From a virus (taxonomy: Duplodnaviria; Caudoviricetes), in the IMG/VR virus record IMGVR_UViG_3300006153_000012, positions 14,045 to 78,044 of that record: a stretch of DNA of 64,000 nt; one strand, given 5' to 3'. Of this stretch, positions 6,065-16,306 are shown piece after piece. Numbering within the stretch: position 1 is the stretch's first letter; every line of letters starts with the position of its first letter. Below the pieces are notes generated by a model that was not told the DNA's origin, made no database searches, and was given only the letters and a program-made list of their open reading frames with translations. The position numbers and the translations under genes were made by a program.

Positions 6065-9040
6065 ACCATCAAGGTACTGATGCTCATACTTCTCATATTC
6101 CTTCAGGTATTTCTCTTTGTCGCGGAAATACTTGAGATAGAGCCTGCGGAGTGCATCCAGATATTGTTTTTCCGTGATTTTCCCACGGTCTTTCAGATCA
6201 TCAAGGTCTTTTAGTTCCTTCTCGAATGACTCTAAATATGCATCTGCTGCTTCCTTGCCGGCTTTCCCTGCTGACTTTTTACCACCTCCGGCATTGGAGA
6301 AATCAACTTTAGGCTCATAATTGATCTTGCCTGCTGATTCTTTGATAAGCGCCTGTAACATTGCCGCCCGTGCAATCTTGAATCCTATGTCCAAAGGATC
6401 AATTGTGCCGCTTGCGACCTCCTGATAAATCTGCTCCAATTCAGTCAGATATTTAATCACTTCACCCGTATAACCTGCATTCTCCGCAAGGGTTCTCAGG
6501 TTCGCAACCTCGCCATCTGTGTTCATAATCTGCATGTTGTACAGTTCCTTCTGGAACGTGAGCATCGCAATCGCCTGTGACGCATTTTCAGTAGACACCA
6601 TCTCATTTGCAAATGCGGCAATCTGTTCTTCTGTGGCTCTTGCAAGGTCAATCCCGGCTTCCTTCAATGCTTCCTTCAATGCCTCCGTGTTGCTTATCAA
6701 GGCTTCAAACGCCACCAATTCCTCATTGACAACACCCAAGTCTTCCAGTGCGGCTTTCAGTGTTTCAAAGTCCTCCGCGCCTGATAACGCCGCCTGTGTG
6801 ATGGAAGCAGCAAGGGAGTCAAATGCAGTCTCTACATCCTGCTCCGTTGACTCAGAATTGCGCAATACCCTGACAAAATCCTCATAGGAAGAGTAGTCTA
6901 CATCAAGATTTAATCCTTCTGGGTCAGACATCTCGTCTAGTTTAGACTTAATTGCGTCACATGTTGATAGGATGTCTATGCTGTTTAGTGCGAACTCATC
7001 ATCCGTGAAGATGGACTGGTATGCGGATTTCAGGGAATCGAATGCGGGTTTCAGCTGGGTGTTTAGCTGATCGATGGTGGAAGAGATGGATGAAATGGGG
7101 TTTTCAATGTTCGATGTTGAATCTTGAACTTCTTTAATCTTAGCAACAAGTTCATCCCAAGATAGAAGAGTACCCTCTGGAACTTCTACCTGTTCTGCCG
7201 CAATGTGCAGTTCTTCAAGTGTTAATTCTCCAACTTTGTCATCAAAATCATCTTGGAGTTTTTCTTTTACGTTGTTGATTAGTGGTTGGGTATCGTCTAC
7301 TTTTGCTTGTAAATTAACAGAAATTGGGTGTTCTGAACCAAAATACTCTTGAACTTTAGCAATAGCTTCTAATAATTCACCAGAATTTAAACTCCCAGAA
7401 TATATATTAGCTAAAGCTTCTGATACTTCTGAATCATTAATATTATTGATTGAGAATAAGATATTACGTCTTAAATATTCACTAACAGCTTCCCAATCAT
7501 TTTTATCAATGCCTTCTGGTAAACTTGACCAATCAAAATTGAAAAGTGTGTCTTGTATTGCTTTTTGTAATCCACTATCTTCAATCTGATTGTAAGTAAA
7601 CTCAGTCTGTAACCATGTATTTAAATATTGATTAATAGACGATGTTTCAGCTTCAAACTGTTGCTCTGCATATTTTACATCGTCAGATGCCTTGTTAAAT
7701 GCAGATACATAAGCATCTTTTATACCAGAAAGATTTGGTATATCACCACCATCTTCTAATTCCAGTTTATAACCAATGATTTGACCCATGCCATCTTTTA
7801 AATTTACTTGTTTTGCTGTTATACCTAATTTTTCAAGTAACTCTATATATTGACCAAGTTTTAATGCAACTGGATCTCCATTTGCATCTTTAGCATTTCC
7901 ATTAATATCAAAAGCAGTATAAATCCCATATTTATTTATTTCTTCATATGCTCTTTGGATTTCATCTCTTGTCTTTTTAGCATCTTCTTTTTGTTTCTCT
8001 AAATCAGAAACATTATTAGAATAACCAGCAAATAAGTCTGGCATCTGTTTCATGATTTCTTGATTTGCCAATACACGTTGTCTTTCAATTAAATCATCTA
8101 ATGAACCAACGATAGTATCTACATCACCAGATAGATCAAGTATAGCAACACCATTTTCATCAAAATTCTTTGTTAATGAAGGATAAAGTGTTGATAACTG
8201 ATTGCTTAACTCTAAAAATCTCTCATATTTTTCAGTAGAAAGATTTTTATTTTCATTAGTTAGTAAATTAACTCCTTGGGCAAGTTCAGCATATTCTTTG
8301 GCAATTTCTTTAGTTTTTGATGAATTTTCACTAAATGTATAGTTTATTTCATCAATTGCATTTTTGGCTTCTTCATAAGCTTCTTTTATTGCCTTAGCCG
8401 CTTTTTCTTGTTTAACCTTGTTTACTAACGCCGCACCACCACATAATGTTAATGCTGCTGTAATACTAGCAATAACAGGATGAGCCTGTGCAATAGTTAA
8501 AATACCAGTACCCAGTCCTTTTAGTGCAGTACCAGCACCTTTAATTTTAGCACCTATACCTGCAAGTAAAGAAGCAGACTCTTTTTGGTTTGCTAGAGTA
8601 ACACCAGCTTTTGCAGCAATTAAATTAGCTTCTGCCTGTGTTAATTTACCAGTAGCAACAAGTTCCTTTAATTTTGCGGCTGTCACAACATTGGTAGCCG
8701 TAGCCTCTGCCGTTTCAGAAGTGATAAGTCCAGTATTAATCAACAACGCTTCTGATTGATCTTTATTTCTCTTTTTTGTTACGAGTATAGCATTAAGTTC
8801 AGCAGTAGTTAATTTGCCAGTAGAACCTAATAATTCTGCCTGTGATAAAATTGCCTGTTTCTGTGCAAGATTAAGTCCTTGTGTTGATAATACCAATTCT
8901 GCTTGCTTTGCGTTTAATCCTTTTAAAGCTGTTGCATATGCAGTTATATTTGTAGCATTTAATTTCAAATTGCTGAGTTCGTTTATTTTTCTTCCAGCAA
9001 TATAAACATCTTCCAAACTTTGTCTAATTGTTTTGAATAT
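6065..9040 (-). CDS. Tail tape-measure protein, exon 2 (992 aa)
   Basis: Ala-rich helical TMP-like ORF; starts ATATTC after AGTATG; ends GATGGT at the P1 U.G. Confidence 0.85.
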
Positions 9041-9121
9041 CATACTAATATATGTTATACTTGTGGAGAGTATAACGTCCTCTTGTGGAGAGAGGATATT
9101 GATTCCCTTGTGGAGAGGGAA
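9028..9121 (-). repeat. 3'-splice-site module copy 1 (functional): three CUCCACA-loop hairpins + AGTATG|ATATTCAAAACAA
   Basis: Plus-strand stems GTTATACT/AGTATAAC, TCCTCT/AGAGGA, TTCCCT/AGGGAA each enclose TGTGGAG; 19-mer TTGTTTTGAATATCATACT at 9028-9046. Confidence 0.9.
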
Positions 9122-9145
9122 ATTTATAATAGGAGATGTTTATTT

Positions 9146-9817
9146 ATGAAAAGAAAAATAATAAAAGTAACAATTTTGATTTTAATGTCTATTTCTATAA
9201 CTGGATGCTCCAAGGCTAATTATCAAAAGGATGAATCATATGAAACAGATATTATTGGAACATATGAAATAAATGCCGAAGCTGATTCTGATAATAAAAC
9301 TACTTATTACAAACAATATGTGTTAAATGACGATAATACATATAATTATGAAAGCAATGTATTTGGCACAGATTCAAAGTCAAGCGGTAATTACACTATA
9401 AATAATGAAACAGAAAATATTCTCATAATTGATTTTGATATTATAAATAGTACATCTACCGATGAAGAATCAGTAAATATTAATTCTGCTAAACAATACA
9501 AAAAGGTTTATAAATATAAAAATATGCTTGGTGATATAATAGAAACGAAAGAGTTGCCAACATCCGAAATGTTTAATTACATAATACCGAATAAAACAGG
9601 AGGTGGCATGATATTTACTAAGGATGGTTATTATCATGCGTGTATTGATATTGATAATTGCCAATGTGACTATGCAAAGGACACAAAATATATAAGAAAA
9701 GATAATATTATATATTTCAATATTAAAGGTTCTGGTACTGATAACTATTGGCAAATTGCAGATTATGTAATCGATGATTATTTATTTACTCCAGAACTAT
9801 ATAAAGTGGAAGAGTAG
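9146..9817 (+). CDS. Lipoprotein (cargo)
   Basis: MKRKIIKVTILILMSISITG-C lipobox; AGGAG RBS; start revised from ORF track 9020. Confidence 0.8.
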   Translation: MKRKIIKVTILILMSISITGCSKANYQKDESYETDIIGTYEINAEADSDNKTTYYKQYVLNDDNTYNYESNVFGTDSKSSGNYTINNETENILIIDFDIINSTSTDEESVNINSAKQYKKVYKYKNMLGDIIETKELPTSEMFNYIIPNKTGGGMIFTKDGYYHACIDIDNCQCDYAKDTKYIRKDNIIYFNIKGSGTDNYWQIADYVIDDYLFTPELYKVEE

Positions 9818-10013
9818 TAGTATCATTTCATTCAATCATATAAATCACGTCCTTTCTAAATATTTTTATGAGTAAGATTACTCAATAGATATCACAATAT
9901 CAATTATAATATCTATTCAATGATCTTGGCTTTGATGAAAATATGTTCTGGGTATCAAAAATATATAACTAATGATACAATAAATGTATCAATGTTTAGG
10001 AGGATATCATGCT

Positions 10014-15735: not shown

Positions 15736-15956
15736 AATATCCCCCTTCATTCTATATTTATCTATTAAAATTATAATATACAAATTCAATTATTGGAAGA
15801 AACATATGTTTGAATATGGTAAAATTTGGAATTTAATTGCAACTATGCACACTTTGATAGAACTTATGTTCTGCTTTGAGATATAGTTTATATCAATAAT
15901 TGAGATATGTCAATACTGTATAGGCAGTATTGTAACAATAAGGGCGGTATTTAAAC

Positions 15957-16250
15957 ATGATTGATTGGAGTAACTTTGAAAATAAATTACAGGAACGTGG
16001 CAGGAGAGCAGAACTATCACGTCAAACAGGCATATCTACCGGCAACATACGAGACTGGTTCAATCCTGATAAACCAGCACAGCCAAGTGCGGATGCTCTT
16101 GTTAAGATATCAAAAGCCCTTGATTGCTCCGTAGACTACCTGCTTGGGCTTACTGATGTTGAAAAGAGAGCAACAAATAAATCAAACATCATCCCAATTC
16201 CAATAGTGAAGCAAAAGGCTGCCGCTGGACTTGGGATACAAACCAACTGA
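15957..16250 (+). pseudogene. CI-like HTH repressor truncated at start of S24 domain
   Basis: XRE HTH followed by IPIVKQKAAAGLG then stop, 9 nt from module copy 3. Confidence 0.6.
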
Positions 16251-16258
16251 ACTGTTAA

Positions 16259-16306
16259 TTGTTTTGAATATCATACTTATAAATTTTGCAACTTGTGGAG
16301 AATTGA
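16259..16306 (-). repeat. 3'-splice-site module copy 3: one CUCCACA hairpin + identical 19-mer
   Basis: 19-mer at 16259-16277; minus-strand CAAUU-CUCCACA-AGUUG with a G.U pair. Confidence 0.85.

Follow-up and report, generated by a model that had tools for sequence, protein, structure and literature searches.

The window, as the stretch of DNA analysed here is called, comprises 64,000 nucleotides (positions 14,045 to 78,044) of the 78-kb virus record IMGVR_UViG_3300006153_000012, which belongs to the Caudoviricetes. Its gene for the tape-measure protein (TMP) is split. Two long open reading frames (ORFs) on the minus strand cover consecutive positions of the family phrog_4211 and are separated by an AT-rich intervening sequence of 9,959 nucleotides (9041-18999, minus strand; 23-30% GC). 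At the border with the second half of TMP stands a 19-mer, TTGTTTTGAATATCATACT, and exact copies of it recur twice within the intervening sequence. What are these copies, and how did they come to lie there? The features on which the answer depends are given below in the direction in which TMP is read.

18958-20970, minus strand: ORF of TMP exon 1; the coding exon ends at 19000 (..GFKNTG); PhageMin_Tail (Pfam), phrog_4211 positions 322-949
18028-18999, minus strand: structured 5' part of the intervening sequence; P10 strand GAATAT at 18974-18969, P1 strand GCCTGT at 18968-18963
18009-18027, minus strand: inverted copy 4 of the 19-mer, one mismatch
17963-17999, minus strand: two hairpins behind copy 4 with (U)GUGGAG loops; the second (17978-17963) is terminator-like, a stem with a U run
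16259-16277, plus strand: acceptor copy 3, a putative relic; terminal G at 16272; pseudo-exon from 16271 to about 16182, 29 codons and then a stop
11534-11552, plus strand: acceptor copy 2, a putative masked relic; terminal G at 11547; pseudo-exon from 11546 to about 11499, 15 codons and then a stop
11503-11515, plus strand: inverted 12/13-mer ATACTCAAAACAT, which in TMP-sense RNA pairs with the terminal UG and first 12 exon-like bases of copy 2
9028-9046, plus strand: putative acceptor copy 1; terminal G at 9041; exon 2 from 9040 (minus strand); adjoins a 1004-residue ORF
6029-9040 (ORF 6029-9043), minus strand: TMP exon 2, starting IFKTIRQSLEDVYI...; phrog_4211 positions 948-1552

The split gene and the repeated acceptor

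Read through from exon 1, the ORF continues for 13 codons into the intervening sequence and then meets a stop. When the two exons are joined at 19000 and 9040, they are colinear with the uninterrupted TMP of 2759 residues at L022 (L-numbers denote related loci). Exon 2 is 90-94% identical to its counterparts in L084 and in L232, an uncultured Lachnospiraceae metagenome-assembled genome (CAJTKK010000006.1); TMPs of cultured phages are only about 25% identical. On the evidence of sequence, the TMP gene appears to be interrupted between 19000 and 9040 by a putative group I-like intron, whose only productive acceptor is probably copy 1. At this copy no local structure that would mask it is predicted.

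An earlier note on this DNA had reported the 19-mer as identical at 9028, 11534 and 16259, with junctions at 9040, 11546 and 16271 and with two truncated peptides after exon 1. These details are correct: the match is exact at 9028-9046, 11534-11552 and 16259-16277, all on the plus strand, and the peptides are IFKTITNDLTKCFEY* at copy 2 and IFKTINSSV... of 29 residues at copy 3. On the strand of TMP (minus), the copies read AGTATG and then ATATTCAAAACAA: six bases of the intron, the last of them G, and the first 13 bases of exon 2. A fourth copy, with one mismatch, lies inverted at 18009-18027 on the minus strand. Four matches in the window compare with 0.02 expected from shuffled sequence, and the rest of the record holds no further 19-mer. 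Similarity extends beyond the repeat between copies 1 and 2, which share 66 nucleotides at 94%. Downstream of each copy, in its own orientation, come one to four hairpins whose stems vary and whose loop is TGTGGAG. In the window such hairpins are confined to the 19-mer region, and none is found elsewhere in the record. The 19-mer and its hairpins are referred to below as the module.

A guide that covaries and a core that resists placement

The guide GAATAT-GCCTGT is located 25 bases into the intervening sequence. The end of exon 1, ACAGGT (19005-19000), pairs with GCCTGT to form P1, with a U.G pair at the splice site. In relatives, the P1 partners are GTCGGT and GCCGAC, three compensatory pairs relative to the window, and the U.G pair is present in all. 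In P10, the partner of GAATAT is ATATTC, at the start of exon 2, and this target is available at all three direct copies. P10 comprises 6 bp in the window and 10-12 bp in L015, L035 and L040, and in L149 a guide change of T to G (TTGTGAAT) is matched by an exon change of A to C (ATTCACAA). The intron end ..AGUAUG, with its terminal G at 9041, 11547 and 16272, recurs in those relatives' modules whose match to the 19-mer is exact. This covariation among relatives supports reading P10 and the terminal G, as first proposed, as those of a group I intron.

The 5' part of the intervening sequence is homologous to two compact introns, in L015 (1,023 nucleotides) and L040 (926 nucleotides), which are inserted at the same codon of TMP and likewise close with the 19-mer; it is also homologous to sequences in L008, L025 and L019. 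About 430 nucleotides form a conserved structured RNA, for which RNAalifold gives 94 pairs, 27 of them with compensatory changes. Among 50,697 phage records, blastn found nothing that matches this 5' core. Neither group I nor group II was matched in Rfam, at gathering or permissive thresholds, by the window or its insert, by any of four relatives, by the compact intron of L015 or by a second intervening sequence that the TMP gene contains. Since Rfam also misses that second intervening sequence, which had earlier been taken for a typical group I intron, the model may be insensitive here, and the negative result is treated as one that may reflect low sensitivity and not as evidence against a ribozyme. 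A candidate P3 (ATTGGAAC with GTTCCTAT) was rejected; it leaves no room for P8, and the segment is absent from the compact L040 intron.

Modules, breakpoints and arrays in related phages

Scans with exact patterns found the module at 14 viral loci, in many metagenome contigs (mostly from gut) and in Lachnospiraceae genomes. The cultured strains that carry it are Acetatifactor muris DSM 23669, Lachnospiraceae bacterium COE1, 28-4 and 62-35, Roseburia sp. 1XD42-69 and Eubacterium plexicaudatum ASF492. After removal of duplicates there are 131 distinct modules. Seventy-five stand next to a long exon-2 ORF starting IFKT..., 45 next to pseudo-exons that reach a stop after 5-119 codons, and 10 are inverted like copy 4 of the window and in every case adjoin the ribosome-binding site of a small membrane ORF. 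In 63 of the 67 exon-proximal modules with enough sequence, the next 400 nucleotides bring an ORF on the same strand as the module, antisense to TMP.

L232:2500-5790 contains three tandem modules, two of which carry exon-2 fragments of 464 and 274 residues that come from different TMP lineages, with only about 85-110 nucleotides of hairpins between the stop of a fragment and the next acceptor. The longer fragment is 94% identical to exon 2 of the window. An internal cassette of L011 and an exon-proximal cassette of L014 are homologous from the 19-mer onward only and unrelated before it. From exon 2 past the hairpins as far as 9175, L084 shares 90% identity with the window; beyond that point its cargo differs. 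The GmrSD gene nearest to exon 2 in the window has an 84.6% identical copy in L014, behind a different first gene.

At least 13 further contigs, some of them from Lachnospiraceae isolates, bear arrays of two to four direct copies, in introns that measure from about 14 to more than 19 kb. The intron of L149, a 95%-complete provirus, is about 15.5 kb long with two direct copies and one inverted; that of L151, of about 14.3 kb, has four direct copies; and in L150 four copies are spread across more than 17 kb without the core being reached. The same TMP codon is interrupted in dozens of phages, by sequences of 0.9 to more than 19 kb. As the blocks range from about 0.1 to 9 kb, copy number tracks acquisition events and not the size of the cargo. 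Block-wise gain or loss bounded by the motif, the absence of which would have told against the earlier note's proposal, is seen in these relatives.

Internal copies as foreign exon fragments

The short reading frames behind the internal copies are pieces of other phages' exons. For copy 3 the pseudo-exon is IFKTINSSV; genuine exon 2 sequences in L104, L108 and A. muris L197 match it (IFKTI[NT]SSVDETRK), and DNA homology at this copy runs from about 15 nucleotides upstream of the 19-mer to about 28 nucleotides downstream. The copy 2 pseudo-exon, IFKTITNDLTKCFEY* (IFKTITNDLTK), belongs to a junction element common to internal copies of L011, L014, L104 and ASF492, with the pattern IFKT-x-N/D-x-D-L-x-K followed by ATGTTTTGA...; over its first 11 codons it is similar to genuine exons, for instance IFKTFNSDIDK... 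Together with the module breakpoints and the block-wise variation among relatives, these foreign pseudo-exons support the proposal, already made in the earlier note, that cargo blocks were gained with an intron 3' end of their own.

Are the internal copies functional as acceptors? At copy 2, the inverted 12/13-mer is predicted to form a hairpin of 14 bp with the acceptor (-11.5 kcal/mol, z = -3.0), and a similar mask is predicted at an internal copy of L104. Such inverted 12-mers are enriched at pseudo-exon copies, of which 14 of 45 have one, compared with 3 of 75 real acceptors (Fisher p = 6e-5). The idea that they are remnants of donor guides was rejected, as no P1 strand (GCC...) follows them. 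At copy 3, the single hairpin (16286-16305) has lost its pairing, which is retained in the homologues L104, L108 and L018. On these structure predictions the internal acceptors are probably non-productive, copy 2 being sequestered and copy 3 lacking a docking hairpin.

The cargo

The direct copies divide the insert into blocks with the following contents.

9047-11533: cargo block A; three hairpins (9054-9121) and a lipoprotein-like ORF at 9146-9817 (plus strand)
9984-11462, plus strand: Mrr_N and GmrSD_N / NsnA-like gene of block A
11469-11496, plus strand: terminator of block A
11553-16258: cargo block B; four hairpins and a lipoprotein-like ORF at 11713-12375 (plus strand)
12709-15789, minus strand: three ORFs of block B, then a terminator at 12692-12663
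15957-16250, plus strand: XRE helix-turn-helix (HTH) ORF of block B
16278-18008: cargo block C; DUF262/NsnA-like gene at 17810-16767 (minus strand) and terminator at 16736-16717 (minus strand)
about 16503-16715, plus strand: small XRE-type HTH ORF of block C, 70 residues

In all, the insert encodes two DUF262/GmrSD_N proteins that resemble NsnA and PD-T4-2_A of PADLOC, two XRE-type HTH proteins, two lipoprotein-like proteins and three proteins that match no family. The last three form the minus-strand operon of block B (533, 284 and 213 residues) and have no match in Pfam, PHROGs or PADLOC; at the equivalent place in relatives there are different, partly defence-like genes. The same three collections, searched with the insert ORFs, gave no integrase, other recombinase, transposase or homing endonuclease. 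The earlier statement that each block starts with a plus-strand gene is right for blocks A and B, with the lipoprotein-like ORFs at 9146 and 11713; for block C it applies only loosely, to the 70-residue HTH ORF at about 16503.

The inverted copy, complementary loops and terminators

In TMP-sense RNA, copy 4 is complementary to all three acceptors over 19 nucleotides, with one A.C mismatch. Its hairpin loops, GUGGAG, are complementary to the CUCCAC loops of the acceptors, and the stems differ. An inverted module beside a small transmembrane ORF is also present in L005, L074, L099, L123, L149 and L019, and in phages with another type of acceptor loop (CCUCAAACA) the inverted module has UGUUUGAGG. 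This complementarity between direct and inverted modules makes it plausible, as a structural model, that the core-proximal module tethers the distant acceptor. Beyond the direct and inverted modules, clear complementarity is limited to one core hairpin in the window, a GUGGAG-loop hairpin near 18456 in the 5' part; the compact intron cores of L015, L008 and L025 have no clear loop complementary to the acceptor hairpin loops. Because a matching core loop is missing from these compact introns, the number and strength of hairpins, to which the earlier note had tied TMP output, are not relied on here.

The small membrane ORF next to copy 4 has 72 residues (18050-18268, plus strand) and a strong ribosome-binding site (GGAGGTGGC). 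Together with the sequence beyond the inverted 19-mer, this site makes up an inverted repeat, with the 19-mer enclosed. As a unit, membrane ORF and inverted 19-mer are conserved in L005, L074, L099, L100, L123 and L149.

Other features of the TMP region

A second intervening sequence (4735-6028, minus strand) separates exon 2 from a third TMP ORF (2335-4734). It contains a TMP-sense ORF of 258 residues (5119-5895) with a PemK/MazF toxin domain, at a place where a homing endonuclease would be expected in an intervening sequence of this sort. In relatives, exon 1 is interrupted at other positions (L025:10756-11943 and 12320-12862; L008:4773-5689; L015:1906-2630) by 0.5-1.2 kb, one interruption holding an ORF of 303 residues and one an ORF of 191 residues; exon 1 of the window is continuous at these points. 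The start of TMP and the upstream gene (20636-21000) are 98% identical to L020/L021, while the remainder of TMP shares only 39% protein identity with them, which marks a sharp mosaic breakpoint inside the gene. Three tRNA genes (Ser-UGA, Cys-GCA and Met-CAU) lie at 43114-51092 on the minus strand.

Probable growth by cassette accretion

It is probable, in our judgement, that the locus records the accretion of cassettes in a putative group I-like TMP intron, with one live acceptor and two relics that came with imported cassettes. The 5' end of the intron would hold the ribozyme-type part, and its 3' part would have been filled with passenger genes that are mostly antisense to TMP and have their own promoters. 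The 19-mer would serve as the acceptor, providing six intron bases up to the terminal G and 13 exon bases for the guide (P10), with the CUCCACA-loop hairpins preceding it. Copies 2 and 3 would each have arrived with a cargo block copied or recombined from the intron of another phage, and each acquired block would have carried the donor's acceptor module together with the first codons of the donor's exon 2. The conserved module may then offer the shared homology by which cassettes are swapped, added and lost, presumably by homologous recombination, both among direct copies and among co-infecting phages or prophages, in the manner of PeSL motifs or integron sites.

Several points weigh against accretion. 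Splicing at 9040, the silence of 11546 and 16271 and the mechanism of recombination are things that we infer. The insert has no evident recombinase, and three of its ORFs match no family. RF00028 is unmatched even at E<=10 in the window, L015, L008, L019 and L025, and P3-P9, including the G-binding P7, could not be placed by hand on the RNAalifold consensus. It is because P1, P10 and the terminal G are present and the core could not be placed that the element is called group I-like. The tandem array of the window rests on a single assembly. The internal 19-mers are perfectly conserved, whereas their flanks have diverged; this could reflect selection, or else youth or gene conversion, and the comparison is biased by the search criterion of at most two mismatches. 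Finally, three terminator-like hairpins (17978-17963, 16736-16717 and 12692-12663) face the TMP transcript, in a region with 12 terminator-like sites compared with 2.7 expected. Cis-splicing across 10 kb is therefore demanding and would need read-through or antitermination. Alternatively, the 5' RNA could end after exon 1, the core and the 19-nucleotide guide, a layout that would be compatible with trans-splicing.

A more specific form of accretion is possible, though we hold it only tentatively and as a whole. Here the module would be the working part of an intron-specific capture system: cassettes would enter beside the live acceptor, displaced acceptors would be masked, and the inverted module would tether the live one. 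The mask would consist of a conserved hairpin, made of pseudo-exon and guide mimic. The inverted module would combine a 19-nucleotide guide with GUGGAG loops, followed by a terminator, and might act in trans. If such a system exists, an essential gene hosts an open-ended island of 10-20 kb of defence and accessory cassettes.

Alternative explanations

Could the module instead be a DNA recombination site? In an integron-like system with a dedicated recombinase, the real acceptor would take the role of attI and the internal junctions that of attC. Many internal junctions across phages do share an imperfect-palindrome architecture (the inverted 12-mer, about 20 nucleotides and the 19-mer), each cassette begins directly after the site with a gene in one orientation, and a cassette that lies next to the exon in L014 takes second place in L011, which entry beside the real site would predict. 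Nevertheless, we regard this as rather unlikely. Among the insert ORFs, Pfam, PHROGs and PADLOC reveal no integrase or recombinase; the inverted arm is found at only 14 of 45 pseudo-exon copies; breakpoints also fall after the hairpins, as in L084; and pseudo-exons of 5 to 464 codons fit irregular recombination better than precise exchange.

It is unlikely, on sequence features alone, that all three copies are working alternative 3' splice sites, with the proximal ones tuning the output of full-length TMP. The three share the same 19-mer and with it the same 6-bp P10 and terminal G, at least one CUCCACA-loop hairpin precedes each copy and is complementary to GUGGAG loops near the core, the internal 19-mers are better conserved than their flanks, and copy 3 is the first acceptor to be transcribed. 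However, efficient use of this first decoy would abolish an essential protein. The alternative products, exon 1 plus 15 or 29 residues, hardly differ from the unspliced one, exon 1 plus 13 residues. The terminal G and P10 target of copy 2 lie inside the predicted 14-bp hairpin, and the only hairpin of copy 3 is without the pairing that homologues keep. The pseudo-exons, moreover, are decaying fragments of foreign exons and not conserved alternative ends.

The same-strand ORFs near most exon-proximal modules (63 of 67) raise another question: might the 19-mer and hairpins be a promoter or leader of the antisense cargo genes, overlapping the TMP boundary by chance? The inverted copy 4 also points at a gene, and a match to TTGAAT-N17-TATACT overlaps copies 1 and 2. 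As a sigma-70 promoter, however, the 19-mer was rejected, its -10 element not being conserved: a -10-like hexamer is rightly spaced from the TTGAAT of the 19-mer in only 28 of 131 modules. Better promoter-like sites follow the hairpins (32 of 123, against 10 of 123 in shuffled sequence), motif and hairpins are absent from the rest of the record, and the 19-mer always lies exactly at the exon-2 boundary and is complementary, with covariation, to the guide. A role as promoter or leader is thus very unlikely.

Least probable of all is an absence of splicing, with TMP broken by the island, its halves acting as separate proteins or the tandem layout being an assembly artefact: exon 2 has an in-frame ATG (MIFKT...) from which it can be read, the TMP transcript meets terminators in its path, CheckV puts the completeness of the record at 48% and splicing is itself deduced from the DNA, yet this ATG has no Shine-Dalgarno sequence upstream, P1 and P10 covary, the same-codon interruption recurs in phages that include the 95%-complete provirus and cultured Lachnospiraceae isolates, and cargo variants between shared flanks would give bubbles in the assembly graph and not tandem arrays.

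Comparison with known systems

An ordinary group I intron measures a few hundred bases and has at most one endonuclease gene. The introns of the family considered here, in prophages of gut Lachnospiraceae, would reach 10-20 kb of swappable accessory and defence-like genes within an essential tail gene. Under accretion, the relic acceptors and pseudo-exons would be a fossil record of island growth, cassette by cassette, from different donor phages. Two questions are raised. How would a ribozyme select the right acceptor among identical decoys that lie kilobases apart? And is a splice-site module also a hotspot at which recombination moves defence genes from phage to phage? Experiments are feasible in cultured lysogens such as A. 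muris DSM 23669, Lachnospiraceae bacterium COE1 and E. plexicaudatum ASF492.

Group I introns are known from TMP genes of prophages in the Bacillus cereus group, as TMP-IVS1, TMP-IVS2 and TMP-IVS3 (Tourasse & Kolsto 2008, PMC2504315). Like these, the present element lies in frame in TMP, has P1 and P10 that fit the target site, brings an early stop after the 5' splice site and has spread between phages (PMC2504315). The Bacillus introns are typical members of IA1/IA2 with at most an ORF for a homing endonuclease (PMC2504315). By contrast, the element in the window extends over 10 kb, and those of relatives over 14 to more than 19 kb; its cargo is multi-gene and mostly antisense, its acceptors are repeated and its core is not matched by Rfam.

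In the nrdD (sunY) intron of phage T4, too, the core comes first, at the 5' end, and the cargo, one endonuclease gene, separates it from the 3' splice site. The layout is shared by IStrons (CdISt1, BcISt1), in which the core lies at the 5' end and large cargo precedes a short 3' segment with the 3' splice site (PMC4227781). The cargo of IStrons is an IS200/IS605 or IS607 transposon (PMC4227781), whereas no transposase family is represented among the insert ORFs here. Tandem relic acceptors with pseudo-exons, as in the window, are not described for IStrons or sunY.

The borders of the blocks recall the PeSL cassettes of T4-type phages, in which a short conserved motif with a stem-loop marks the borders of accessory cassettes (PMC2839356, PMC4122927). 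There the PeSL motif is reported as homology for insertion, deletion and replacement between related phages, and PeSLs as promoter-terminator motifs in intergenic hyperplastic regions. The present motif differs in being an acceptor with exon bases inside an essential gene; stem-loops are present, and a matching promoter is lacking in most copies.

Integron arrays consist of one-directional cassettes at attI and attC sites, imperfect palindromes with a core and an inverse core. The present arrays resemble them in their one-directional cassettes and imperfect-palindrome sites and in that the newest cassette appears next to the primary site. Unlike integrons, the insert has no integrase, the palindrome is found at only about one-third of internal junctions, and junction lengths are irregular.

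In the literature on cargo-carrying phage group I introns, no description of this layout was found. The element seems to combine a TMP intron of group I type with cargo placed as in IStrons and with cassette borders akin to those of PeSLs and integrons.

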